Shown: piece by piece, positions 22,139-54,439 of the stretch
Position numbering within the stretch: position 1 is the stretch's first letter
Layout: each line of letters begins with the position of its first letter
DNA from: Camelus dromedarius
Lineage: Eukaryota
Direction: 5' to 3'
DNA length: 64,000 bases
Assembly (NCBI RefSeq): GCF_036321535.1
Contig: NC_087436.1
Span: 4,278,001-4,342,000, forward strand
Notes under the pieces: model-generated
Databases searched by the model: none
The model's input: only the letters and a program-made list of their open reading frames with translations
Told to the model about the DNA's origin: nothing
Position numbers and translations under genes: made by a program

Positions 22139-22270
22139 CTTTCTTGTTTCAGGGAGGGGGGGAAGGTAATTACGTTTGTCTATCTATTTTTAATGGTGGG
22201 ACTGGGGATTGAACCCAGCACATCGTGCATGCTAAGCACATGCTCTGCCACTGAGCTCTACCGTCCCCCC
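22139..22270 (-). mobile_element. tRNA-Ala-derived SINE (vic-1 type)
   Basis: Reverse complement of AGCTCAGTGGCAGAGCATGTGCTTAGCATGCACG..GGGTTCAATCCCCAGT; duplication GAAACTAGTCAG at 22127-22138 and 22274-22285. Confidence 0.92.
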
Positions 22271-23084: not shown

Positions 23085-23534
23085 CAGGCAGACCTCAGAA
23101 ATACTGCAAGTTCAGTTCCAGACCATGTGGTAAAGCAAATGTTGCAATACAGCAAGTCACACAAAGTTTTGGCTTCCCAGTGCATGTAAAAGGGACCCCT
23201 ATACTTCACTGTAGTCTATAGATGTGAAAGAGAGTTGTCTAAAAAAACAACATGCACACCTTAATTTAACAGTATGTTTGGTGGGAAGAGGGCAGAGCTC
23301 AGTGGTAGAGCTCGTGCTTAGCATGCACGGGGCCTGGGTTCCATCCCAAGTCCCTCCATAAACAAACAAACAAACAAACCTAATCCCCCCCCAAAATAAA
23401 TAAAAATATTTTCTTGCTAAAAACTGCTGACCATCACCTGACAAGGCAGGATTACCACAAATCTGTAATTTGTAAACTAACACAGTGTGTTCAAAGTAAA
23501 ATAAAGCAAAGCACAGTAAAACACCGTACACCTG
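23085..23534 (-). mobile_element. Internally deleted Tigger1-type DNA transposon with a nested SINE
   Basis: TA-CAGGCAGACCTC ... GTACACCTG-TA termini; GTTCAGTTCCAGACCA and AAAGCAAAGCACAGTAAAAC subterminal motifs. Confidence 0.8.
23283..23405 (+). mobile_element. tRNA-Ala-derived SINE
   Basis: AGCTCAGTGGTAGAGC..GCTTAGCATGCAC..GGGTTCCATCCC; A-rich tail. Confidence 0.92.
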
Positions 23535-29984: not shown

Positions 29985-30077
29985 AAAAAAAAATTTAACA
30001 CAGGTACCGGGGATTCAACCCAGAACCTCATGCAAGCTAAGCACGTGCTCTACCACAGAGCTGTACCCTCTCCCCTC
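29985..30077 (-). mobile_element. tRNA-Ala-derived SINE
   Basis: GGGGATTCAACCCAG..GCTAAGCACGTGCTCTACCAC. Confidence 0.85.
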
Positions 30078-30387: not shown

Positions 30388-30547
30388 TTTTGTTTTGTTT
30401 TTACTTTTTTTTTTGGTGGGGGAAGGTAATTAGGTTTATTTATTCATTCATTTATTTATTATTTTTTTTATGGTGGTACTGGGGATTGAAGCCAGGACCT
30501 CATGCATGCTAAGCATGTGCTCTACCACTTGAGTTATACCCTCCCCG
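30388..30547 (-). mobile_element. tRNA-Ala-derived SINE
   Basis: GGGGATTGAAGCCAGGACCTCATGCATGCTAAGCATGTGCTCTACCAC with T-rich tail. Confidence 0.92.
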
Positions 30548-30806: not shown

Positions 30807-31290
30807 GGGGCAGGGTACAGCTCGGTGGCAGAGTGCCTGCTTAGCGAGCACGAGGTCCTGGGCTCAGTACCCAGTACTGGCATTAAAAATAAATAAATAA
30901 TCCCACTCCTGGGCATGTATCCAGAGAAAAGTATAATTTGAAAACACACATGCACCCCAGTGTTCGCAGCAGCACTGTTTACAATAGCCAAGACATGCAA
31001 ACAACCTGAAATATCTATTGACAGATGAATGGATAAAGATGTGGTATATGTACACAATGGAATACTACTCAGCCATAAAAAGTAAATAAAATAATGCCCT
31101 TTACAGCAGCATGGGTGGACCTGGAGATCATCATTCTAAGTGAAGCAAATCAGAAAGAAAAAGAAAAATCCCATATGGTATCATTATATGTGGAATCAAA
31201 AAAAAAAAAAAGACACAAATGAACTTACTTAGAAAACAGAAAGACTCACAGACATAGGGAACAAACTTACGGTTACCAAGGGGGAAAGGG
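30807..31290 (+). mobile_element. tRNA-Ala-derived SINE head (30807-30898) abutting an L1 3' fragment (30899-31290)
   Basis: SINE A/B boxes, then AATCCCACTCCTGGGCATGTATCCAGAG of L1. Confidence 0.88.
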
Positions 31291-31597: not shown

Positions 31598-31740
31598 GGG
31601 GGAGGAGGCTATAGCTTAGTGGTAGAGCGCGTGCTAAGCATGCACGAGGCCCTGGGTTCAGATCCCCAGTACTTCTGTTAAGTAAATAAATAAACCAACC
31701 TAATTACCTCCCCCTGGACCCCCCACCCCCAATTTAAATT
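31598..31740 (+). mobile_element. tRNA-Ala-derived SINE
   Basis: TAGCTTAGTGGTAGAGCGCGTGCTAAGCATGCACGAGGCCCTGGGTTCAG. Confidence 0.92.
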
Positions 31741-32443: not shown

Positions 32444-32770
32444 TATCTTTTTTTTGATTTAGAGAGATACATACTGCATGTTTCAGAAGGCTAGAGAAAG
32501 GCCATGAGATGTGGCGGTTGTGCACTCAGGTTAAAGTAAGAGTAGATATAGACTCTGTAGACAGAGTGCGTGTTATCTGGGAAGAAAAGGGAGCGAGAGA
32601 GGGAGCGAGAGAGGCCGCGAGGCATGGTGTTGTCAGTTTTTATGGGCTCAGTAGCTTCACATGCCAACAAGTGGGATTCTTATGTATCTTTTAATGGAGG
32701 TACTGGGGCTTGAACCCAGGTCCTTGTGCATGCTGAGCACGCACTGTGCCACTGAGCTACACCCTCCCCC
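32363..32770 (-). mobile_element. tRNA-Ala-derived SINE with (TTTA)n tail, interrupted by an LTR-like insert (~32450-32680)
   Basis: Duplication AAGGTGTCTT at 32353-32362 and 32771-32780; SINE head at 32690-32770. Confidence 0.85.
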
Positions 32771-33798: not shown

Positions 33799-33900
33799 GA
33801 GGGGCAGGTATAGCTCAGGGGTAGAGCACGTGCTCAGCATGCGCAAGGTCCTGGGTTCAATCCCCAGTAGTTCCGTTAAAAAACAAAACCAAGCAAAACC
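33799..33900 (+). mobile_element. tRNA-Ala-derived SINE
   Basis: TAGCTCAGGGGTAGAGCACGTGCTCAGCATGCGCAAGGTCCTGGGTTCAATCCCCAGT. Confidence 0.92.
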
Positions 33901-34447: not shown

Positions 34448-37400
34448 GTAAGTCAAATGTTCATCAATTTCTGAGTTCTTCAATATTATAACAAATGGTT
34501 AAGTTGCTCAAGGATTTATCACAGCTACCTATTTTGTAACACGGGTCCTATGTAATAAATTCTAGAGTCAATACACCCATGTGACCCCAAACCACTATTT
34601 GTTTTCTCTGGCTGTGCAGGGATATTACAGTCAACTATGTGACTGCTAAAGATCAGCGCAGGCTGAGCGCTCCTTTACATGGCATCCACACCCAGGTCCG
34701 CACTCACAGCTGGAGAGCAGCAGCCGGCAGGGGCCCGCATCCCTGGGGAACGTGTGCAGCGGCAGGGGCGCTCTGCGTTTATGGTGAGCCTGCCAGAGAG
34801 CCAAGCATCACTGTCGTGCTCAGCCAGTGACAACCTAGCAAAGGCCCCAAGCAAAGCTGGAGCGGGCACGCCGCCACAACGTGGTGGGCAGGAGGGTTAG
34901 GGGTCACCACAGGGAGGGGCACCCTCCATGCAGGAGACTATTGGTTGTTTTTGTGTTGTGTTACTTTGTTTTGTTTTTAACTATCTGAAGCAGAGAGAAT
35001 TTCCATTAGTAGAATTCCTAAGTGTGTCAAGAAATAAACCCCAGTAAGAGAGGAAACATATTGAAACAAGGTGTCCTTGTGTCCCTATGTCCTTGTTTAC
35101 AATCTGTTTGATGGAATTAAATCCTCCCTTCATTTTGAAAGCGATGTATTTGCCTAAATAAGTATAATGTCAAGTTAATCCACTTGCAGGGAGGATTTCC
35201 TATTTGGCCATCTCTCCCATTCGATGAGGCAGATGGTGGCTGCTCTAAATGTGCTTATTGCCTCTTTCCAAGTAGGCAACCCTGGGGTCAGAGTTTCTAT
35301 AAAGGACCCCAGGACCGAGCATGTCTCTATTATCATTTGCTGACGCTCACCTTCATTTCAGAGTCTTGTTTATATCCCTTTAAGACTGACGAGGAAACAG
35401 CCATTTTAAACTCCAGTTTTCTAAATGTAACTAACTCAGCAGCAGAGTTCCCTTTCCTGGCCTCTTCTGCTGTTGTTCCCAGCCTGCCAAAACTGTTATT
35501 TCCCTGAAACTTTAAAACTCTCTGACCTCCTGCTTATTTGGTTATTAATCTGTACCTTTGTGCTGTGGATACTTGTTTCCCATATGAGTTACAGATCCTC
35601 CTTACTGCCACAAATCACCTGCAGTTAAAAGTTCATGAGCCTGTACGCGGGGGGAGGGAGGTGTGCTCGGAAGCTGCTGGTGGTGTTCGCTGAGCCAGGA
35701 GGGCACAGGGCCGTTATCCAAGGTGTTGGAAAATCACCTTCCACTGCCACTGAGGCATGCTGAATTTGAAATGCTGCTTTCAAGAGGAGATATCCCACGG
35801 GCAGGTGGCTCCAAGAATCTGGTGCCTAGAAGGGAAGTTCAGGGTTAGAAATAACATGTGGGAATCCTCGGCATGGATATGGCTTTTTAAGGTCCTGGGA
35901 ACAGATGAGCTAAGCCAGCAGGGAAGTGGAAACTGGGTAAAGTGATGGGGAAGCCCTGAGGCAAAAGGAGCAGAATGAGGAGAGGCCGCATCAAGAGCAG
36001 GGCAGGAGGTGCAGGAAGGAGCTATGATGCTGCAAAGTCAGTGAGAGACAGACACCCTTAGAACAGAGAGGACTCGGATGTGGGAGGGCAGGGTCCAGAG
36101 GGCACTGTCCTGACCCCAGTGCCCGATGGGCAGAGAGACTGGCTTAGGCACAGGGTACTCTGTGGTATGTACTTTTACATAGTTGAGTAATTCTCCACAA
36201 ATCCCATGTTTATCCTTTCCACTGAGTTTCCATTTAAAGAAACCTTCTGAGACAGGGAATTCAATTGACCAGACCCAGCCTTTTCCTGACTCATCTGCTC
36301 ACTCATCATCACTTTGTTGCACTATGTCAGGCCTGGCAAGCCACTCAAGACCCAGAACTGTGCCAACAGGAGAGCTCCTGCCTTCGAGGACCTCATGCTC
36401 CAGGCAGGGATGATGGGCCTTGAACTAACAATGAAGGTGAAAACCCGCCATGTCTGATCCGTTGACTGCTACTGACTGGACAAGACAGTAATGCGTGGCT
36501 CTTCCAGTGAAAGCTAAGAGGACCAAGGTACCTGCACTTAAGAGAAAGAGTAAGAGTGGGAGGAAAGCAAAGGGCCGGGCAGAGGCGGTGGTGTGCAAAA
36601 TTAAAGGCATGGCATGGATCTCAGAATTATTTTGACACAAGGTCTGTGAACATGCTCACGTGAGACTGGCCTAGGAGGTAAGAGGCTGGCTAGGTTTTTG
36701 GAGAGTTCTACTGCCACCAGGACCTCAAGTCAGGAAGGAAAGTCTGTGACTATTTGAGACATAGATGTACGTTTCCATTCTTATCGGTAACGGGCAGATA
36801 GTGACCTGGAAAAGATGATGGAACCACAAAGGAGGCTTACTCTCCAGCGCCAACTTTCCCACCGTCAGAAGAGTTAGTGGAAAAGGAAAACTCCTGGACA
36901 AGGGCGTCGAGAGCCAGGGAGAGAGGCCTCTGGGAGCAGAATTAACGCTTAATCAGACGCTCTCCTCTCAGGGAGCACAGCCCACCCAGGCTCTGCCCAC
37001 CGGGACCTCAGAATGGCTGCAAACCAGCGGGCTGATGGTGACTTTCCTGGCCCTTCTCTGTGCTTGTAGCCTTATTGTACATGGGGCAGGGATTAGGCAG
37101 CTTTCCTTTTTAGTTTATTAGAGGATGCTGGATCAGGGAAAGCCATGTTCAAACTTGATACGGAGAGCAGCACACATACAGGTCACCTTGACATTCGGGA
37201 TGGGACTGGTGGACCTTTTGTGTTGCCTCAACTGAAGAAAGGAGGAGTGTGTCTTTCCAGATGAGCAAGAGACAGACAAAGTATTTGGCAGCTAGATCCA
37301 GGTCATGGTGACCATTGGTGCTGTTCACCAAACACTGCAGCATCCCTCCCTGTGGGCACGTGGTTCATTCACACGCCCCCTCCCCAGGTCCCGAGAGGCT

Positions 37401-40400
37401 GTGAAGCAGAGGCCCTTCTGAACACTGTGTGGGTGCAAAAGGTGGAAAGGAGAGTGGAACACAGTGTTGAGGGCTGCAGTGCTCACTGAGAAGGTGACTT
37501 AGACCCAAGACCTCAGTGAGTGCAGAGTGAGCCATGCAGACAGAGGTGCCCCTTGCGGGAGCCCGGAGCAAAGGCAGCAGCAAGGTCAGAGGCATTCCTG
37601 ATGAGACAGGAGCAATGCACGGTGCAGAACCAACCGGTGGGGCAGGGGAGCAGGCCCCGTACCTCCTTGATGGTAGGCTTCTAGCCAGTGATGGTTTCTG
37701 ACTACGTAACAGGCCGTGTTTGCACAAAGATGAGAACACACTCAAAACCTTAAATAAAATTCAGGATGTGAGCCTGGCTGGTGTGGCACATGCAGGTGCC
37801 CATGGGGATTAGTTCCCCCTTCCCTTTAACACTGGTTTATTGGGCAAAGGACTGAGGAGAGAAGGATGAAGCTGTGCTCCCCAGCAGGGCCAAGGCCCCC
37901 CGGTGATGAGGGCAATGATACCCAATACAGAATGTTCTCTGTAAAGGCCCCAACTGTATTTTGGAAAGAACCTAAAAGCATCCAGGTATTTTTCAATCCC
38001 AATATTGTAATGGGGATATTGAAACTCAAACAACTTGAAGAAATTTACCAAAGTTCCTCAATGTGTAGTTTGAATTCCGGGACCCCAAGGAAAAATTTCC
38101 AAGTGGATCTGTTTATTGTGTGAAAATGGTAAAATAAAAAGTCTCTTGCTAAACAAATAATTCTCTTTCATGCCCTTTCTCCCCTTATCTTCTCTGCTTT
38201 CCATCCCCATTAATGTACAGATTATGTCCCTTCATGGTACATTTTAAAATGCAGATTCTAATAGGTAAGCCATAGAGTCAGAGAGGCCGCGTTACTTGAA
38301 GCCACTCCTGCGAGGCCCAGATGCCCTGCCCCTCCCAGGCGCTATCACTGGGGTGGAGACAATAATGACTTTCTGCCCCAGGTGGATGGGAAACCAAGGC
38401 CGAAGAGATTAAGTAACTTTTATGAAGTCACACACCTGCTAAGGGCCAGTAGTTCCAAACTGTAGTCAAACTTTGCTTCCCTGGACGTGATGGAGCGCCG
38501 CTGCAGCAGCTGCAGGCTGGCGGCCAGACGTGGGGGCCGCCGTGACACGCTGCAGAGAGAACCCCAGCGCAGAAGCCACTCCACTGGTGCCCCGTTTACA
38601 AACTGTGCAAAGTGATTCCCTTCCTGGGCCTTTGATTCCTCCTCTGTAAAATGGGAGAGTTGGGTTAGATGAAATGTAAAAACTCTTCTGACTCGAACAT
38701 TTCATATTTCCAAATCCCGGCCTGGAGTTAGCTTTTCAGTGTTGGAAGTAATTTTTCTTTAGGAAACTGTTTTCCTGTAAGGAAAGGGATCATACCAGGA
38801 TGCTCTGGGGTGGGGCCTGCAGGATTTTGGGGCCTTCTTTTTATCTGGAACTCCTGCCACAAACTCCAGCTCAGGAGGGCGTAATGCACATGGCCTGCCT
38901 GGTGCCTGGTCTGGATGTTTTATTGTGTCTACATTTGCCGAACGGTTGGAGAAACAACTTCCCACCCACAAAGAAATACTTTTCTGTCTCTCATAAACAT
39001 CTTTGTAACTGCATTAATCATCTTTCCTTTCTGCAGAGGAAAAAAAACATCCTTACAATGTCATCTAAAACACCATTTTACATAATTCAGAAATAGCTGG
39101 GAAATTAATGTGTGTGAAATACCAGTAAATGTAACAGGTGAGAAATATATAAAGTCCCCAAATTTAAACCTCCATGCTTGTGAAGCACCTGTGCTCATAA
39201 TTTGTTTTAATAATTTGGAGCATTTGATGATTCCTAGATAGGCCATTAGTGCCTGCAGCACGTGGAACATTTTAACAAAACACAAGAAAAAGCATGATGC
39301 TTAATGTTATCTACCTGTAACTTCTAAAACACTAGAATGTTATTTCTAATGCTTTTCTCCTTTCCTTTACCAGAGAAGAGGGCCAAATGGAAAAATGACA
39401 GATTAATGAAGGAGAGGGACTTGGTGACAGGAGGGGGCGGGAGTCACCCACTCCTGGGCACAGGCTCGCTCCCTCAGTCCCAGCAGGTCAGGACATCGCC
39501 TGGAACGGGACAGAGAAATACATCAGTCCTGGAAGTCACCGGCAGTTTTCTTTATAAAATGGTAATCACAGGCCCCTGCCAATTAAAGGTTGTTCAAATG
39601 TCTCATCTCAAAATATATAATATGCAGTGCTGATTAGAATAAAGCCATCTTTATTTCTTCCTTATCAGGTCTGGGCACATTCCAAAAAAAAAAAAAATAT
39701 TTTCGATGTTACTTCCTCCAGGTCGCCTCTGCTTCTCCCCGGGCATCCGCCTTCACGTCCGTGGCCTCCACGGGCCACGCCTGCCCTGCGTGCACCCCTG
39801 GGTTCCTGAACATTCTCCCACCTACCCCAGGTCTTCCAGCTTTGGGAAGCTGTTCACCCACTCCACGATGTGAGTCCTACTCTGTGCTGGGCATGGTGCT
39901 AGGTTTATATAAGGACAGATGCAACGCCCTGCCTTCAGGAGTGCAGGCCTGCAGTGTGGAGAGCATGCGATGCCCCACTCAGAGCCCAGGCGAGGTGAGG
40001 GCAGGCTCCAGGAAGCCAGAGAGGAGGAGCTCCTCCACTCTGGAGGAACAGGCAGCTCTGCACAGACGGCCCCCCATCTGGTCCTCGGACTACCAGGCAG
40101 CAAGTGGACAGGTGAAGGGGTTATCAGTCAGGGAGGACTGTATCACAGCAGAGGAGTGAGACCATTTCAGGCATGGCAGATTGTGAAAAGTATTCGTTAC
40201 AGGGATCTCCTGGTAAAAGCAGCAGGGGACGTGACCTCAAGATGCAACAGGGGAGCACAGCGCTCTCCTGAGCAGGTCCAGGACTTGTCACCTGATTCCT
40301 GATATTAATCAACCTAGGGCCCTTTTTAGGAAAAGGATATAAAAATATAAAAACAACATTAAATGCAAATATATATATGTGTGTGTATATATATATATAC

Positions 40401-40549
40401 ACACTTATTTTGCATGAGAAAAACAAATACTTAACAATTGCAAATGCCACAAAAAATCACAAAATCTGGGAAAAAACAGATTTTATTTTCATTTGCTAGC
40501 TGGCCTGTCGTCATCATTCTCATGTGTCCTACCTCTTTTTTTTTCCCCC

Positions 40550-40730
40550 TGAAGAATGCAGGTGGTCTCTAGAAGCTGGAAAAGGCAAGGAAACAGATTG
40601 TCTCCTCTGGCCCCAGAAGGAATGCAGCCCTGGGGGCACCTTGATTTCATGCAGCAAGATAATAAACTTGTGCTGCCTCAAGTCACTGAGTTTGCACTCA
40701 CTTGTTAGAGCAGCAATGGGAAACTCTTAC
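40550..40730 (+). mobile_element. MaLR LTR fragment (MLT1C/D-like)
   Basis: CTAGAAGCTGGAAAAGGCAAGGAAACAGATT..GAAGGAATGCAGCCCTG..AGCAGCAATGGGAAAC. Confidence 0.8.
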
Positions 40731-40939
40731 TGTTGTGAATTCTGCACCTGACACATGTTAGTTATTCCCTGTGAAAGCACACCTTCAGCCTCCCTCCAGC
40801 TGCGTTTTCCTGGCGGGCTTGCGAACAGCTTGTCCACTTAATCCTACCTTGAGGATTAGAAGAGAAAGGAAGAAAACACAGTGAGAGCTCAGTGCTAGTT
40901 ATCTTCGTTCTTAGGGCAGCGTGCTGGTTATTGTGCCAA

Positions 40940-41258
40940 TATCTGACACTACATCTAACACCAGTGTGTGTGTGTTTTCCAACATCATTCAGTCCTCTGA
41001 CACTGACTGGATGTCCAGCAGTTCGATTCAGTTTAGGAGCTGTCTGAACTTGGTGCAGATTTCATGGGCTAAGGACTCGGTCTCACCACGCTACCCCCCT
41101 GCAGACACCAGCTGCAAAGGGGGTGCCCGGGATGCTGGTGGTTCTTCCTGGCCAACCACGAACTAGTGGGTTCCCATGACCTTCCCCTGTAGGTTCAATA
41201 CTTGTTGATAATGACTCACGGAACTCAGGTGAACACTTTATTTGTTTACGTTATAAAG
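40940..41258. mobile_element. MER21-like LTR fragment
   Basis: TCTGACACT, GGGTTCCCATGACC and GACTCACGGAACTCAGG motifs recalled from MER21 consensus. Confidence 0.6.
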
Positions 41259-41259
41259 A

Positions 41260-42075
41260 CTGTCTCAGGAACAGCAGGTTGTCTCCAGTTGAGTTCCCCT
41301 AGCAGGCCTTGGAGCGCCACTAAACTGGATGCTCTGGCAAGGGTGAGGGTGGGGCATTTGAACTTTTCGGCAAGCTCCCAGCCCAGGCATTTGAATGGAG
41401 GGTCATGTTGTATGTTTCTTTTTTGGAACTTGGAAGCCCCAGGAATTAAAGGTAGCAATTAGGTCCTGTGGCTTCCCTCATTCTGGCTAGCCAGCAGGGT
41501 ATCACCCATGTAGGCCAGCACAATGCACTGAGGGTGCAGTTCCCGCCAGGGGTCAAGGATGGTTGCCAGGGCCTTTTGGCACCCTTCTGAAGAGAAAGCC
41601 ATGCCCTGGAGAAACACAGTCCATGGGGAGTGTGGGGCTGGACCCTCGCAGTTGGCCTTGGGAACCATAAATGCAAGAGAAGGCCTGTACCCCTTTTTCA
41701 CGGGGACTGTGAAAAAGGCGACCTTGCTGTCTAGTATTGAGACATGTGGGTGGGTCATAGGGGGTCTCCCCAGCCAAGGGATGCCCTCTTGGGACTGGCC
41801 AGGTTGTGGCAAGCAATGTTCCAACCAAGGAGTGTTCCATGGTGAGTCTGAGGGCTCAGTTTGGCCTGCCCCCCATTTTTCTGTGACTAAGTTCTTAATG
41901 GTGGCCAGACACTCCCTACTTAAGGGCCATTGGGGAATTTTTGGTCCTGCCTTGGTGGTGTCCAGGGGCTTAGCAATAGGCTCCAGCCAATGTTGTTTAA
42001 GATGATTCTCAGGCGACCGGGCAGGGTCAGGGGATCACCCTGAGTCAGCTTCAGTGGGTCCCCCACTCGTTTCCC
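41260..42075 (-). pseudogene. pol: ERV reverse transcriptase, disrupted and truncated
   Basis: GPKIPQWPL..SPWNTP; ILDSKVAFFTVP..AFMVP; LQGM; YMGD (degenerate YMDD); PPFKCLGWEL; LQGLLGELNW. Confidence 0.92.
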
Positions 42076-42878
42076 ACCTCCAGGATTTTGATCTTATTGC
42101 CCCATTTTGCTAGGACATCCCGGCCGATGATGACTTGGAGCAAGTCTGGGACAATTATGGGGTCCTATGTCTCTTCCTATATTTGATAGTCTGGGAGGGC
42201 CACGGTGACAGGCACTCAAAATTTTTGTAGTTGTCCCATGAGGCCCCCAATTCCCCACACTGCCCCCTCTACTGGATCCAGTGGCTTGCCAGTACCATGA
42301 GCCAATTCCTTCCCGACCACCGACCTGTCGGCGCCTGTATTGAGGTGGCCTCAGACTTCCTGGCCTGCAACTCATACTCTGATTACAGGTCGACGATCTA
42401 GGTCCAGGACCGGGAATGTCTGGGCTTGACCCCATCAGATGGGGGAAGTGCCAAGTACTGCGAGTTGGGCAGTGATCCCTGGTGCGCATGTCCCAGTCCA
42501 GATTATTGTAATTTTTTTATTGGAGAATCACCTCAGTCCAAATCCCTGGGAGTAGCCAATTGTTTGCTGTGTCAAAATTATATCATTTTGGCCACCTGAC
42601 ATCAACACAGCCAATAAGCTCTGGTGGGATATTCAGACTGGCCCCCAGGGGGACTGGGGTGACCACCCCAGCTCCTGGCAGTCTCTGATCATGGCTGTGA
42701 AGAGATCAAAGCAGTCGGCACCATCCATAATGGGCCACAGGACTTGGGCGCCAGGTTGCAGGGCTTGACATTTGAGGGCTATGGCAGGGGTGTCCCCATG
42801 GCAGATGACGACTTCTCCCTCTCAGTCATCCGGGGGAGGGCCACGGGGACTTACTGGCCCTCCCGCTATCCGTTTTTT
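42051..42878 (-). pseudogene. pro: ERV pro with an N-terminal dUTPase-like domain, disrupted
   Basis: GADCFDLFTA..VTPVPLGASLNIPPELIG (dUTPase-like); HLNTGADRSVV (DTGAD with D to N); IIGRDVL. Confidence 0.85.
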
Positions 42879-44215
42879 GCCGGCTTCTCGGGGCACAAGG
42901 CTGCCCAGTGACCAGGTTTTTGGCAGATGGGGCAGGGTGTTTTTGGCCTGACAGTGGGGTCAGGCATAGGTTTTCTGCCTGTGCCTTGGTGCCTACAAAG
43001 GCATTCACTTTTCCAGTGCCCATCTTGCCCATAATAAAAACAAGGCCTTTTTGGTTGAGGGCCTCTGGGCCCAGGACACCTTGCCTGGCCACTGTGGCTG
43101 TTCGGGCCTCCGCGAGGGCCACAGCCTCGGGATGGATCTCATTTGCTACCCAAATTTTGTCAGTTAGGCTCCCTTTTTTTTGCCCTCTAGCAGTCAAGGT
43201 GTTGTGAATGGGGTTGATGGCGTTGGTAACTGAGAGCTCCTCTATGAGAATCTCTTGGGTCCCTGAGTTGAAGGTGACCTGGTCCGCCGCCTTTTGCAGC
43301 CTATCCAGGAAGGTTGAATACTCCTCCATGGGGCCTCACAGGGCCTTGGCCAGAGCCTCCCGGAGACCCGCCTGGGGCCAGCGCTCCATGGCCTCAATAA
43401 CCCGGTCCTGATAACATCGGCGAAGAGCTGCACTGGGGAGGGAGTGCACACGCTGGTCATTTCCCCCAACTGCGCTGCCTTTCATGGTTGAGTGTTGGCC
43501 GGACTAGCAACCCATTGCTCGATTCGCTCCTGGATCAGACTGGTGGCCATCGCCATTTGCACCGGTGTGAGAACTCCCCTGAGCAGGTGCCTTAGATCCA
43601 GGCCGGTGGGATTGGTGGCATCTATGATGCCCCGGAGGACTTGTACACACCCTGGGCTGCCTGGACCATATTCCTTGGTTTCCCTCAGGTCTTTATAGGC
43701 CTGGGTATTCCAAGGTACCCGCTGTGGGAGGCCTTGGGCATCTTGGATGACTGGAAAGGCCTGAGTGGCAAGGACCTTCCAGAAGGGACTGGGGTTATTA
43801 TTCCAAATATCCCCATCCCATTCCTCTGGATCTATGGCTCTTGGGGGGGGGCTCCCTGGGTTCCCTCCTTTGGCGTGGAGCTGGGAGGTCCAGCTTCCCA
43901 GGTTCTCTCGCAGCCTCTAGCCGGCTCCAGGTTGGCTCTGGGGTTTGTCTCCTCCCACATGGTCTTGGCCAGAGCCAGTAGTGGGAGATCTTTACGCCTT
44001 CCCATTATTATTTGGGTTGTTCTATGGCAGTCGGAGGGTTCCAGGACACCCTCACTGGGGAAACACTCCTTGTATTTAATGTTTTCATCCAGGACTCAGC
44101 TGTTCCCTTTCCATAATTCCCATATCCCAAGCGGTCCTTGTTGGCTATCACGTTTTCCAGCAAACCCCATGTCGTGCGTGCCCCCCTAGATCGGGATGTG
44201 GACTGAGCTTTCCCG
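42866..44215 (-). pseudogene. gag: ERV gag (MA-CA-NC), disrupted
   Basis: GKAQS N-terminal-like motif; FPSEGVLEP; CA start FPVIQD..YGPGSP; MHR GPMEEYSTFLDRL; knuckles CFYYGQDGHWKSEC and CPICQKPGHWAALC. Confidence 0.9.
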
Positions 44216-44709
44216 AGGGTGAGCTGAAGAAAGTGCCTCAGTTCCTCAGGCTGGTCCGGAGGGCAGTGCAGGGCCTGTGGATGGGGCTCAGGCCTTAGAC
44301 GCCGGGTGGGCTGCCAGGGAGGCTGAATGACGGGCTGGGGCTGTTGTGGGGAGCAGGATGGCTTAGTGTTTTCCCCACAGCACCGGTAACCGCACAGCCG
44401 CCGTTTCCCAGGCAGCAAACTAAGAGAATGGTTGTAACAGGGCTACTGGCCGCCCGGAAGTCACATTTCCCATTTTTAGGGTCGATTTCAGTTGCGTTGG
44501 TTGCATTGTTGTTTGTGCAACCCCGTAATTTGGTCAAATTGTAACTGGCTAGTGTCCGGACACCAAGGGCGTCAGGACTAACTTGGCGCCACCACAGGCA
44601 AGCCCAGTGGGCCAGGCCAGAGTTATCAGAAAAAGGCAAAGGGAAGGGAAGAAACGGGCCATTCTCATAAGGAAAGAAGCCACAAGATCGCGAGATGCCG
44701 GAAAGATGC

Positions 44710-44727
44710 TCCTCACGTGGGGCACCA
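44710..44727 (-). promoter_or_regulatory. Primer-binding site, best match elongator tRNA-Met
   Basis: TGGTGCCCCACGTGAGGA two nt after the LTR end; 16/18 to recalled TGGTGCCCCGTGTGAGGA versus 14/18 to tRNA-Lys(CTT). Confidence 0.75.
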
Positions 44728-44729
44728 CT

Positions 44730-45297
44730 TGTCAGGCTCAGGTGTCTCTGCTGGGCCGAGGGTGATCAAGCCTTTCCCGGGTTCTGAGCATCTCCAGCCC
44801 GACAAACCTGGGGACCCTAAAAAATCTGTCAGCTATCTTTTTTTCTGACGACCACCATGCGTGGGTTCCCTGGACTTTGCATCCCCAGTTGCTTGTGTGC
44901 GGAGTGAAGAAAGAGCCGAGAGCCAAGTGTTCAGGCGCAAGGCAGACGGGTTCAGGACGGGAGGGGACCGGGCCCGCGCTTCTACCAGCCTATCCGAGGC
45001 CAGGAGTGCACTGGACCCAGATCGCCCCCCAACTCCTGACAACCTCGGCATTTTGTTGAATTATCAACCAGTCAAGCAAAAGGGCTAGGGTGGGGGTCGC
45101 AGGCATGGGGGGAGACGGGTGGTGGTTAGTTTTGATTGGTGACCTTTAACGCATTGGGGGGCCTTTAGCGCTTAGAAGGTGTGGGGCCACTGTCCATTTG
45201 CTCGTCTGCCTGGCCCACGGTCACTGTGCTACTGCGCTCGGCCAAGTGTTGTCTTTTGCAAGCCAGCAGCTGCCGTTCTTGCTGGCCTGATCCTACA
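44730..45297 (-). mobile_element. 5' LTR of the class II ERV (~568 bp)
   Basis: TGTAGG...CCTGACA termini; two CCAAT boxes near 45134 and 45152; directly followed by the PBS. Confidence 0.8.
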
Positions 45298-46244
45298 GTG
45301 ATGACTTACTTTTTGTTTCCCTTGTGATTTTTGTTTTGTTTCAGAGCCAGCTCGCCTGCTTAAGCCTTACACATCACACCTGAGTGATCACTTGACCACC
45401 CCCCGAGTGACCAGTTGACCCCACTGTGTGACCCAGTCATCAGTTTGGCTCTTCAGTTGGCTCAGAGCTCAGGACGTTCTCAACTGATGTGGTTGCTCTG
45501 CCAAGGGTTCTTCCCTGCAACTGACAGACCCTGGATGAGCAGTTAACGTGCATTCCCTGGGGAGGTGGCCGTCTGGGCTGCTGTTTGCGTGGCTTAGTTA
45601 ATTAAGTCTGTGACACTCAGCGTCTCACTAACTTGTGATCTGATCACCTGATCGAGTAGCCTGGACAAAGGCTGGTCAGAAAATGGGCAGGAGTTCAAGT
45701 CTCTCTTCACCAAAACCGAGGCTCTATTCTATAAACTCCTCATCCTTCTCTAGACCGGGGAGCGACAGGGACAGAGAACCATGGCCTGTGATAGGGTGCC
45801 CTCCATGACCTCAGCCGGAAGACCCCACCCCGGGACTCTGGGGATCAACAGACAGACTCTCCCACTGACCTCATGTAACTGTCCCTTCTCACCACGCTCC
45901 CAGGCAACACTCAAGCTGACAGTGGCCCTGTCTTCATCAACCCATGGAAATCCTGCCTGGGAATTCCAGTCTCTTCCCTTTTAAAAAACTTCTGCATTTA
46001 GGCCTCTCCTATTTGCTTTCAGGTTTGCACACGTACATTCAGAAGAGCTGAGCTGTGAGTCCCCTTTCCTGTACCGTCTTTGCGAGGGTGGCATCTCCTG
46101 CTTCAGTGAAAGCGGTGTGGTGTGTTTGCTGTGCCTGCTCTCTGGAGGAGTGTGTATAAACCTGACGTTAGGAAATAGTACACTTTTCTAAATTTAGGAA
46201 AATATTTGAAGCAGCTGGCTTGACAGAAGATTCAAAAATATACA

Positions 46245-47025
46245 TTAAGTTTGTCATCATTAAAAAAGTCCACAAATACTAAACGCTAGAGAGGCTGTGG
46301 AGAAGAGAACCCTCTTACACGGCTGCTGGGAACGTAGTTTGGTGCAGCCGTTATGGAAAACAGTAAGGAGATTCCTCCAAAAACTAAAAATAGACCGTGT
46401 CTGATCCAGCAATCCCACCCTGGGTGTATATCCAGAGGGAACTCTAATTCAAAGACATACATGCACCCCAATGTTCACAGCAGCACTATATACAACAGCC
46501 AAGACACAAAAGCAACTTAAACGTCCATTGACAGATGACTGGATAAAGAAGTTGTGATATATTTCTATAATGGAATACTACTCAGGCATAAAAAATAAAA
46601 CAATGCCATTTGCAACAACATGGATGGATCCAGAGATGGTCATTCTACGTGAAGCCAGAAAAAGAAATATACCATGATATCACTCATATATAGAATCTAA
46701 AAAAAGAAATAAAGAGGACACTAATGAACTCGTTTACAAAACAGAAACAGACTTGCAGACATATTAAAAATCTTATGGTTACTGGGGGAAAGGGAGTGGC
46801 AAGGGATAAATTTGGGAGTTTGAGATTTGCAAATATTAGCCACTATATATAAAAATAGATTTAAAAAAACAAATTTCTTCTGTATAGCACAGGGAATTAG
46901 ATTCAATATCTTATAATAACCTTTAATGAAAATGAATATCAAAATGAGTATTATGTATATATATGCAACACTGGGACATCTGGCACATTGTAACTGACTG
47001 TACTTCAACAAAAATTAAAAAAAAG
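46245..47025 (+). mobile_element. LINE-1 3' end
   Basis: GATCCAGCAATCCCAC, TATAGCACAGGGAA, A-tail. Confidence 0.93.
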
Positions 47026-50800: not shown

Positions 50801-53800
50801 TAGAAAGAAAAGCAAGCCCTACACGAATGTTTAGCAACTTCTCCACGGGAGTGACCGTTCTCTTTTCATGCATGATGACATGACTGGTAGTAAAGACTGA
50901 AGGTTGGAAAAAAAAGGGAAGAAAGAAAATGATAAAAGAATGAAAGGATAACATAGATCAGAATTTTAAAAACTTAGAAACAAAGGCCTGGGAACTCAGA
51001 AAAGAATAAGATAATACTGAAAAATCACTTTTAAATGAAATTTAAGCTAAAACAAAGTGATAAGTAATGTTTTGTAGAACAAGCAAATGAAAAGAAGGAA
51101 ACTATTAAACACTACTGAGAAGTTCTCCTGGAAAAGAAACTAAACAAGAAATTGTAAATTATTTGATGGATGTGTCAAAAGCAGAGGATAATCTAATATA
51201 TGAATGACTGAGGGACCTGAAAGAGAAGCAAACAAAAAAAGAAGCAAGATGCAAAGCAAATTTTAAATACTATGATGCAGAATTTCTGAAATTTTGTTAA
51301 AAGCTTTGAAAACTGTAACGTGAGAGAACAAGGAGCACGGCCCTGCACTGCCTGACGGCACAGCGCCTCGCGCCGCCTGCGGTGACAACCACCCTCCTCT
51401 GTCGCCACGTCCCGGCTCACGCTCAGCAGCAGCCGCCCCACTGCTTCCACTGCTTGCTCCCCCTGCCGGCCACCAAGTCAGTGAGGGACGCGGCGAGAAC
51501 ACAAGCACGTGGGTGCCTTACCTTTCTTCCCCAGCCTCCATGTTCACATTGCCTCCTCCTGGTCCTCTTCACCACCAGCTGCTCCCTGAGAGCTTCTCTT
51601 AACAAGAACAGGAGAGAAGGTGCTGCCATCTGGGGGGAAGAGAGGAGTTGCACGTGTCCAGAGCCGCCGGGGGCAGGAAAACAGCCACATGGGGGGTCCG
51701 GGGAGGAGCCAGATTCTTGGGGTCCCTCCGGCAGGGTGGGTCCAGCCCTTCTGACTCCCAACCTGCCCCCTCCTCAGGCCACTCGGGGGGGCGTAGGCAG
51801 ATTCAGTGGTGCACAAGGGGGTCAGGAGCCAGGGCAATGCTGAGAGAGCGGTGGGGGGGTGGGCTACAAGATTTTCTACAAGGTCCCGGCACCCCAAGTA
51901 CCTGCACGGGACCAGCTCCTACAGGAGGAGAATTATCAGAAAAGGGGAAGAGGAGCTAAGGAAGAGCTACAAAGAGGAGTTTATGAATTAGAAATAGAAA
52001 ATGAAAAAGAGATGAATGAGAAATCAATTACATGGAGATCAAGGCTCTGCGGATCAGAATCTGCTTTGTCTGCAAAGCAGTGTTCAGTGTCCGAGGGCAG
52101 CAACGCCGGGACGCTGGGGTGATGCCGGGAGAGGGGAGCAGACGGCGAGTCACGATGAGAACGTGGGGCCCTGACCCTCCTGGGATGGTGCAGCCCCACC
52201 TGAGGGCCCCTGTGCCTTCATCTCCATGGTCCTCCCAGGCCCTCAGTTGCTCCACCTCTGCAGGGAGTGAGTGGGTCTCTGTCTCTCCCATACTTTTCCA
52301 GCCGTCACATTCCCTATGCATAACCAGGAATGAAGGCCTGTGTCCTCCCGCCCCTCCTACGGCAGCCACGCATTTCTGTGCATGACCTGGCCGCCCTCCC
52401 TCTCTGTTCCGCTGCACACTGCTTCCCTTCCTCACTTCTCTCCTGATTCGTGCTCACTTCCTTTCTCCTGGCCTCCCTCCACCAAGCGTGCAGCTCTCCC
52501 ATGTGTGCGCACTGCAGGGACGGCCATGGGTGTCCTGCCACCCTCTTCAGTCAGTCTACTGACCAATTCTCAGCATCCGCCCTAACCAGGGAGCCCCAGG
52601 CATGAACCTGATATTGTTTTGTCCCTGGAGGAGGGAGGGCAACCATCTTCACACAACAAGTGACTGTCCTGTGCCTGGGGTGACCTAAGGTGACTGGGAG
52701 GTACTTCATTCCACACCAATCCCATAAATCTCCTATTCCCTTAGGGAGGATGACAGCAAACTTAGATAAAGTAACTTGTGTCAATTCCCTTATTATGAAA
52801 ATGATTCAACACGGGACCTCTTAAATACACAACACCTGCCAGGGTTTGCCCTGAGCCTCGGAAGGACGGGGAGGGGTGAGACAGGGCAGGCCGGAGGACA
52901 GGCCACAGGCTGGGCGTGACTAGGGTGTGTGGATCAGGGAAGGCTGTCTGGGGAGAGCAGTGGGATCTGAGAGGGGCAGTGACCTCCTGACCGGGCCACC
53001 TGGAGGCTGTGTCTTGGGCCCAGGCAATCCCAGGAGACCAGGTCAGCAGGGCCCTGACGGCAAGCGTGTGAAGCAAGCCGAGCAGCCCTTCCCACAGTCC
53101 TCCAGACGGCCCGTTGCCCAGCTGGGCACGGCCCTCCCTCAGGTGGAGGCACGTTCTGCACAACAGCCTCGGGTGCAAAAGCAGGAGAGCCGGCTTCGCC
53201 CTCACCTGCTCCCCACGTGCAGCCACAGCCCCGCTGAGGCGCTGCACCAGGCTGAGTGTGGGAGACCCCAAGGCGGACATGGCGGGCCACGTGGCCACCA
53301 GCACCACTGAACGCCCTCGCTGGCTCTCAAATATGACCTGAACCTCACTTGCCCCAATCCTAGAACTGGGGGTCCTGGGGTGCTCGGGGCCTGTGGCCTG
53401 CTGCCTCCCCTGCTCACATGCCCTCACCCAGCTCCCCTGCTGGGTACTGGGTCTCCTTCCTCCTCCCAGCCTTCCCCAGTAGCCCCTCTGCCTCTGAAGG
53501 CAGCCAGCCCCCACCATCACTTCACTCCCCCCAGGCCTTCGTCTTCTGTGGGCTCTGAACCTACCACCCACTCCCAGGCACTTCCTGATGGGGAGTTGTT
53601 CCTTCCAGGGTAGAGGAGGGGCTGGGAGGCAGAGCTCTGCCTTTTCTGTGGGCACCAGCTTTCTAGCCCTTGGCTTGGCTCTGGAGTTGTTTCCATGGTA
53701 ATGGACTGATGAATTTTTTTTATACGTATTAGAAATAAAACACCTGTAGCTAAAAAGGAACCTGCATTTCAAATATTTTGTAAACAAAGTAGTGGAGCTG

Positions 53801-54439
53801 TACCTTGTTTATTGCCTCCATGTCTGCATGGTGGGGCAGCAGCTCTGCTGCAATGCCTTCGCAAGGGCTGCCGCGCACTGGGGCGCAGTGCTCCCGCTGA
53901 CGTCTGCAGCGCTGACGTTGGCACCACTTTTGACGGGGATGGCCACGCACTCCCCCGCCTCGCACTGTGCGGCCTGTCGGCATCATGCCAAGAAACAGAG
54001 TGTAAGCGCTAGGAATTCCAAGCCAACATGCCACAAGTCCCACCAGTTCATTATACTTAAAACAGATCAATTCATTTTTTATTTAAGTCGTTACATGGAA
54101 TCCATCTCACGTGGACACGGCTGGCTGCTACACACCTTCATGATGGCCGTCTTGTTCCTGCTGTCCTGTGCACTGAGCTGGCATCCTCACTCCACCAGGA
54201 GAGTCACCACGCCTGCATGGCCACTGGCACACGCCAAAAGGAGAGCAGTCCTGTGAACGGGAGAGGACTTTTTAGGACATTAGAGCGCACTAGTTCAAAC
54301 ATACCATTACTCACGTAATTGGGAACATTCAATAGCGTGCTATTCCTACCCCTTTAAAAGAAATATTTCATTTTCTTATGGAGAACACTACAAGCTCTCA
54401 CTACTCACCACATTAATGGAAGAACAACCTGTTTGAATA

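Follow-up and report, generated by a model that had tools for sequence, protein, structure and literature searches.

A truncated and decayed class II endogenous retrovirus in the dromedary genome that has a betaretrovirus-type layout and may branch deeply, close to the root of the alpha/beta-like retroviruses

We analyzed a 64,000-nucleotide stretch of the dromedary (Camelus dromedarius) genome (contig NC_087436.1, positions 4,278,001 to 4,342,000; hereafter the window), repeat-rich DNA of mammalian type, which carries on its minus strand the remnants of an endogenous retrovirus (ERV). Pfam searches combined with a reading of the frames place the coding remnants from approximately 45371 to 41250 in the order gag, protease (PR) and reverse transcriptase (RT), with E values of 8e-9 for Gag_p24, 3e-6 for Gag_p24_C, 7e-6 for zf-CCHC, 7e-8 for RVP and 9e-11 for RVT_1. 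An initial annotation, made from the letters alone, had placed a divergent class II ERV at 41260..45297; retroviral domains indeed lie there and the RT-side end fits, but the other edge has to be moved 74 bases further, to 45371. We consider it somewhat better than an even bet (a probability of roughly 0.55) that these are the truncated, neutral remains of an old class II ERV, present in few copies, which was organized like a betaretrovirus and branched off deeply, close to the root of the alpha/beta-like retroviruses. An origin in an old and little-known lineage is possible, although the decay is too advanced for certainty.

The 5' end of the provirus is delimited by its long terminal repeat (LTR). 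Contigs of public sequencing runs were matched to the stretch at 80% likeness, with the loose ends of the matches taken as edges; two of the DNA runs yielded contigs from further copies of the family that match the window as far as 44730 on one side and 45371 on the other, beyond which they diverge from it. These break points define a 5' LTR of 642 bp (44730..45371, minus strand), which begins with TG and ends with CA on that strand. Two bases beyond the LTR lies a decayed primer binding site (PBS; 44711..44727, minus strand), TGGTGCCCCACGTGAGG, which departs from the tRNA-Lys1,2 pattern at 3 of 17 positions and is the sole match to that pattern in the window; the adjacent LTR edge was set independently of it, by the contig break points. 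By chance, at least one match to the Lys1,2 pattern arises in 8 of 100 shuffles, and the patterns for Lys3 and Pro (the latter with up to 3 mismatches) had no match in the window. We take the three patterns used here to be those of the respective tRNAs, and the Lys1,2 identity of the site depends on that assumption.

The gag remnant, of approximately 535 codons (42866..44473, minus strand), opens with ATG-GGA (MGNVTS, 44473) and runs through a matrix (MA)-like part, the N-terminal domain of the capsid (CA-NTD), its C-terminal domain (CA-CTD) with the major homology region, and the nucleocapsid (NC) to a TAG stop at 42868-42866. The gag ATG, MA and NC are all read in frame 1 (numbered by the upper coordinate mod 3), and indels have moved the two CA pieces into frames 2 and 0. 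In P0258, an open reading frame (ORF) from the orthologous locus that is 97% identical, MA through CA is read in a single frame, and matched contigs show a 2-nt difference at 43843, consistent with an indel in gag; accordingly, gag was once a single ORF of about 535 codons. The NC, in the ORF 42866-43138, contains two CCHC knuckles, CFYYGQDGHWKSEC and CPICQKPGHWAALC, an arrangement that is reportedly a marker of class II retroviruses, and both knuckles align to those of human T-lymphotropic virus 1 (HTLV-1). The MA region has no Pfam match and no PDB match at E<=10. In particular, the betaretroviral matrix read into it earlier from the peptide FPSEGVL found no echo in a family match, as Gag_p10 (PF02337) is absent from all three frames at E<=1, although decay may hide such a domain.

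The -1 frameshift from gag into pro is well supported (signal at 42834..42878, minus strand). The heptamer A AAA AAC (42878-42872) stands one codon ahead of the gag stop, in phase with the NC frame of gag, and is followed after a spacer of 7-8 nt by a GC-rich stem-loop (42864-42834) with a core stem of 10 bp, 13 pairs in all and a minimum free energy of -24.3 kcal/mol, which 16 of 200 shuffled sequences equal or better (z -1.51). This combination of heptamer and stem occurs once in the window, and the -1 frame that it opens, despite 4 stops, runs without a frame break through about 155 codons into PR. Use of A AAA AAC at the gag-pro junction is known from beta- and deltaretroviruses, and the arrangement seen here is that of these two groups and not of lentiviruses.

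Those 155 or so codons form the N-terminal region of pro (42411..42871, minus strand), which has the size, place and frame of the dUTPase that betaretroviruses carry between slip site and protease. The dUTPase proposed for it in the initial annotation, on which the case for a beta-type layout chiefly turned, could not be recovered: all three frames of 42380-42880 went without a match to the Pfam dUTPase model at E<=10, phmmer searches of PDB with two frames of the region found no dUTPase, and a profile of 8 lentiviral dUTPases, run against six frames, gave nothing in the region above the background of the whole window. The AlphaFold model of the region is unusable (predicted local distance difference test score 37.7). 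A search with the protease region of a rodent ERVK retrieved only 23 close rodent proteins, none with a dUTPase, and no relative of Pol of the intracisternal A-particle (IAP) type was found in IMG/VR. A weak resemblance to two presumed dUTPase motifs is a lead only and not a test.

The PR remnant (42090..42410, minus strand) shares frame 2 with this region; its active site reads NTGAD, with the Asp replaced by Asn, its GRD motif is retained, and it contains 5 stops. At the C-terminus of pro no G-patch (PF01585) was detected in three frames at E<=1, where decay may again hide the domain. Near the end of pro a second slippery heptamer, G GGA AAC (42069..42075, minus strand), stands as a weak candidate. 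It keeps the phase of the PR frame, no persuasive structure follows it (z -0.27), and its -1 frame is frame 0 while the present RT is in frame 1, so that one further indel is required. A -1 shift from pro into pol probably existed. Thus, the separate frames that had been claimed for gag, pro and pol hold for gag (frame 1) and pro (frame 2), linked by the in-phase A AAA AAC, but not for RT, which now lies in the frame of gag rather than in a third. The lentiviral layout, with one shift that leads from gag straight into a pol frame including PR, is not the one found here, where the frame entered at the slip site carries some 155 codons and PR, and RT lies in another.

The RT remnant (41249..42034, minus strand) comprises about 262 codons covering the fingers, the palm and the start of the thumb. 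It is separated from PR by about 44 codons, as against 49 in rodent ERVK rows and 12 in lentiviruses. It has suffered one TAA, the loss of some 17-18 finger codons, a local double frame slip in the palm near 41400-41450, and a change of YMDD to YMGD; the finger gap is visible in the alignments to PDB entries, of which HIV-2 RT (64.1 bits) and HERV-K RT (62.9 bits) are matched at close to the same level. RT homology ends at about 41270-41250. Pol proteins of 700 or more residues, compared with the whole window by tblastn, matched only the RT piece and PR; no retroviral Pfam domain was found in the three minus-strand frames of 36000-41260, and no second LTR anywhere in the window. Together these results mean that the provirus is cut off inside RT, with RNase H, integrase, env and the 3' LTR absent. 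Across about 530 codons of pro and RT there are 10 stops, and with the frame breaks and the damaged active sites of both enzymes (DTG to NTG in the protease, YMDD to YMGD in RT) the element is dead. As a rough neutral expectation, the stop density would correspond to about 10-14% nucleotide change, and hence to an age in the tens of millions of years. Nothing about this truncated fossil points to a function in the host.

The family to which it belongs is not single-copy. In two runs of host DNA, X13 and X2, 27 of 36 and 22 of 27 matched contigs, respectively, are less than 95% identical to the stretch; these include pieces about 86-88% identical over 42536-44607, that is gag and the N-terminal region of pro, and many LTR contigs are less than 90% identical over 44730-45371, some with internal deletions of 88-285 nt. 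There is thus at least one more internal copy, along with several LTR copies. No paralogous contig over RT occurs in X13 or X2, an empty interval (40900-42536) that does not prove that other copies lack pol. A contig of a close relative of the dromedary covers all 4801 nt of 40900-45700 with 66 differences, which means that the insertion is shared with that relative; the ORFs P0001 and P0258 are 96-97% identical. This spanning contig is one of those from RNA libraries of two studies that contain the ERV locus (40900-45700) continuous with both flanks; in another of them, 2 nt are deleted at 43843 and 4 nt are inserted after 44008. These show the orthologous locus and not its transcription, as carried-over DNA or a site within an intron would give the same picture.

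The RT read-through was searched exhaustively with HMMER against 1.84 billion protein cluster representatives, giving 218 hits at E<=1e-3. The closest is a 99-residue ORF of its own locus (96% identity), apart from which no match exceeds 38%. The next are bird and snake ERVK-like Pol proteins (36-38% identity, 103 bits), with equine infectious anemia virus (EIAV) at rank 11 (85 bits), rodent ERVK Pol at 65.5 bits and Pol of simian T-lymphotropic virus 6 (STLV-6) at rank 73 (59.7 bits). In a tree of RT (52 rows, 268 columns; IQ-TREE with LG+C20 and a careful search), rooted on six gamma-like RTs, the query lies inside a 46-row class II clade with 100/100 support, in agreement with the class first assigned to it. 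Within this clade the order of branching is deltaretroviruses, lentiviruses, the query, and then an alpha/beta-like clade of 36 rows comprising IAP, rodent, marmoset and raccoon-dog ERVK, and bird and snake ERVs. The node that unites the query with this clade has 91/83, and the clade that excludes it 97/92. A tree of PR and RT together (22 rows, 370 columns) recovers the same order, with the corresponding values at 89/82 and 98/96. Neither tree places the query among the alpha/beta-like (ERVK-type) rows sampled.

The pattern of identities points in the same direction. The query RT has a mean identity of 29.7% to the alpha/beta-like rows (maximum 34.6), 28.8% to lentiviruses, 27.5% to deltaretroviruses and 23.9% to the gamma-like rows, whereas the alpha/beta-like rows are 47% identical among themselves (minimum 37) and 33-35% identical to the lentiviral and deltaretroviral rows. 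Relative to them the query thus retains a ratio of about 0.80-0.86 toward the lenti, delta and gamma groups and only 0.63 toward the alpha/beta-like mean. Decay alone would lower identity alike to all groups, and the unequal fall therefore agrees with a branch at the alpha/beta-like base or slightly outside it. Individual columns of RT fit such a stem position as well: the query has QGM as in the alpha/beta-like rows, but AFF instead of the CFF that most alpha/beta-like rows shown carry, and neither the additional residue in their PVWVxQWPL motif nor the His before YMDD is present in it. When the query was constrained to join the rodent ERVK clade or the bird clade in the PR and RT alignment, the approximately unbiased (AU) test gave p 0.025 in either case, each at a cost of 9.29 log-likelihood (lnL) units; this equal cost implies that both constrained trees collapse to the alpha/beta-like base node.

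Several points weigh against the reading that we favor. The end branch of the query is very long (2.8 changes per column in the RT tree, 1.96 in the PR and RT tree), the tree tool flags the place of so long a row as unsure, and random decay tends to shift a sequence toward the base of its own clade. The trees rest on a single RT copy, and the alpha/beta-like sample is without rows labelled mouse mammary tumor virus (MMTV), Mason-Pfizer monkey virus (MPMV), jaagsiekte sheep retrovirus (JSRV) or Rous sarcoma virus (RSV). With RT only, the AU test rejects nothing, whether the query is held to the lentiviruses (p 0.343), to the deltaretroviruses (p 0.191) or to a six-row mammalian ERVK set (p 0.138); with PR added, the query may still join lentiviruses (p 0.185) and, at the borderline, deltaretroviruses (p 0.052), and the groups in the tests with p 0.025 were named after the tree had been seen. 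On the side of the layout, the dUTPase, G-patch and Gag_p10 that would anchor a betaretroviral arrangement all went undetected, and the energy of the gag-pro stem-loop is unexceptional for so GC-rich a stretch. Judged from these alignments, the case against membership in the betaretroviruses by RT nesting is weak, and that against a grouping of RT with the deltaretroviruses only borderline. The proposal that the element represents a lineage outside the recognized genera is accordingly borne out as far as RT falls outside the sampled alpha/beta-like clade at no more than 38% identity, but with the long branch and the AU tests several placements are still acceptable.

On the reading of an old class II lineage near the alpha/beta-like base, the provirus entered the germ line long ago and later lost everything downstream of mid-RT. 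The virus had a three-ORF layout as in beta- and deltaretroviruses, with gag, a -1 shift into pro and probably another into pol; it was primed from tRNA-Lys1,2 and possessed a two-knuckle NC and a long N-terminal region of pro at the place of the betaretroviral dUTPase. Its RT and PR, of class II but in none of the sampled groups, would make it a sister to the alpha/beta-like (ERVK-type) radiation, branching after the deltaretroviral and lentiviral splits.

A real, if lesser, possibility is that the element is an ordinary member of the ERVK radiation, whose basal place and mixed motifs are artefacts of some 10-14% neutral decay, the deletion in RT and reliance on a single copy. With betaretrovirus-like class II ERVs (the ERVK group of HERV-K/HML, IAP and rodent and carnivore ERVK, with the exogenous MMTV, MPMV and JSRV) it shares the LTR, the Lys-type PBS, specifically Lys1,2, the two CCHC knuckles, the -1 entry into pro at a canonical heptamer with stem-loop, the long region before the protease, a PR-RT spacing (about 44 codons) near that of rodent ERVK, the QGM of RT, and the highest RT identities, which are to ERVK-like proteins; its very long branch and the AU result for the mammalian ERVK set would also suit such an origin. 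It differs from them in that RT, alone or with PR, branches outside the sampled alpha/beta-like clade (97/92 and 98/96) with no identity above 38%, that even the base node of that clade costs 9.29 lnL (p 0.025), and that the fall in identity is steeper toward the alpha/beta-like rows (29.7 against their mutual 47) than toward the other groups; nor do the undetected dUTPase, G-patch and Gag_p10, or the lack of CFF, HYMDD and PVWVxQWPL found in most alpha/beta-like rows shown, speak for ordinary membership.

In the opposite direction, one might see here the relic of a genus-level mammalian class II lineage that split off near the parting of lentiviruses from the alpha/beta-like group, combining the three-ORF layout and Lys primer with lentivirus-like features in RT and at the N-terminus of PR, and surviving in few old copies without a described counterpart; we hold this stronger proposal to be doubtful. 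The horse section of PMC4133949 and the portions of PMC11089739 and PMC8605555 used here describe neither an 'equine U1' group nor a mammalian class II lineage at this position, a silence that cannot show the family to be undescribed.

The resemblances to different genera that first drew attention to the element are real in the sense that the peptides concerned, GPKIPQWPL, LATILDPWRELHPQCIVLAYMGDTLLAS, PPFKCLGWEL, LQGLLGELNW, PCPICQ, FPSEGVL and YGPGSP, are all in the translations, with WGFQVP in a neighboring frame. The mixture of beta-, delta- and lentivirus-like motifs is likewise measurable, but the differences are small among weak scores, and YGPGSP fails as a betaretroviral sign, since PGSP also occurs at the corresponding position of HTLV-1 Gag. 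The N-terminus of RT with GPKIPQWPL is closest to lentiviruses, being identical to EIAV at 13 of 21 positions as against at most 10 for alpha/beta-like rows. PR has its best PDB matches in the proteases of human immunodeficiency virus 1 (HIV-1) and EIAV, and in local comparison scores 29.0 bits with EIAV and 27.1 with rodent ERVK. These features, with the high rank of EIAV in the RT search, the Lys-type PBS and the AU values of 0.343 (RT) and 0.185 (PR and RT), are what an origin as a sister or stem lineage of the lentiviruses (EIAV, simian and human immunodeficiency viruses, those like feline immunodeficiency virus, and caprine arthritis-encephalitis virus), still with a separate pro ORF, has to offer. 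We consider it quite unlikely: the best trees place the query elsewhere, apart from a lentivirus clade with 100/100 support; the gag-pro slip site with a separate pro frame is not lentiviral, PR being in the pol frame of lentiviruses; and the EIAV protease leads that of rodent ERVK by just 2 bits. Further, lentiviral genomes are A-rich, whereas the GC content here is 0.56 over 42-44 kb, and the element lacks the part in which a lentivirus would carry vif, tat, rev and, in non-primate members, a dUTPase between RNase H and integrase.

Deltaretroviral affinities are seen in gag and in RT. The best PDB match of CA-NTD is HTLV-1 Gag (6.5e-6), followed by HTLV-1 CA and the CA of bovine leukemia virus (BLV), whereas no CA of a betaretrovirus or lentivirus reached E<=1, and a word-based search with this domain returned the orthologous ORF only. 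NC likewise matches HTLV-1 Gag best (0.016), and CA-CTD has a marginal match to the 'capsid protein p24' entry 8erh (E 0.24), other 8er* entries having matched CA-NTD as HTLV-1 CA did. In RT, the motif C stretch is closest to deltaretroviruses, with 15 of 28 residues identical to STLV-6, and 7 of 10 residues of the thumb stretch are identical to the same virus. A layout in three ORFs, with A AAA AAC as the gag-pro heptamer, is a further point in common with the HTLV/STLV and BLV group; the 3' half, where a tax/rex (pX) region would lie, is missing. Even so, it is very improbable that the provirus is a mosaic, made by recombination of a delta-like gag with a different pol, or a relative of the deltaretroviruses: the PBS is of Lys type with no match to the Pro pattern, STLV-6 RT ranks only 73rd, deltaretroviruses branch earlier in the trees (AU p 0.191 and 0.052), the long N-terminal region of pro is unlike deltaretroviruses, BLV CA reaches just 14.3 bits in local comparison and on CA-CTD is behind a bird ERV (6.5 against 15.9 bits), and no breakpoint is seen, the differences being within noise. 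A mosaic origin was rejected as the principal explanation because the domain preferences are only a few bits apart. The beta-, delta- and lentivirus-like motifs are best seen as mostly shared or ancestral class II states viewed through decay and noise, and not as evidence of a mosaic.

Elsewhere in the window, the Rfam tRNA model has six matches of 35-39 bits (22194-22265, 23288-23358, 30471-30543, 31605-31676, 32695-32766 and 33804-33875), and a direct repeat of about 54 nt is common to 30471-30543, 32695-32766 and a further copy at 30003-30056; the six matches look like copies of a tRNA-derived short interspersed element rather than tRNA genes. Direct repeats at 30908-31086 and 46419-46599 (79-84% identity, about 15.5 kb apart) flank the ERV and are probably fragments of one interspersed repeat family, resembling long interspersed elements. 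Finally, a stop-free frame of 348 codons (52765-53808, minus strand) matches no Pfam family; it may have stayed open by chance in DNA that is GC-rich here (GC 0.588), or it may be an unrecognized exon.

Class II ERVs are common in mammals, with 174,549 clade II RT loci in 452 mammalian genomes given in Table 2 of PMC11089739, and one more ERVK-like relic would be ordinary in itself. What sets this dromedary element apart is the isolation of its RT, which finds nothing above 38% identity beyond its own locus in 1.84 billion representatives, together with its place in the trees beyond the sampled alpha/beta-like groups and near the lentivirus split. If the deep position is true, it would bear on the divergence of lentiviruses and betaretroviruses and on the genome layout of the ancestral class II retrovirus.

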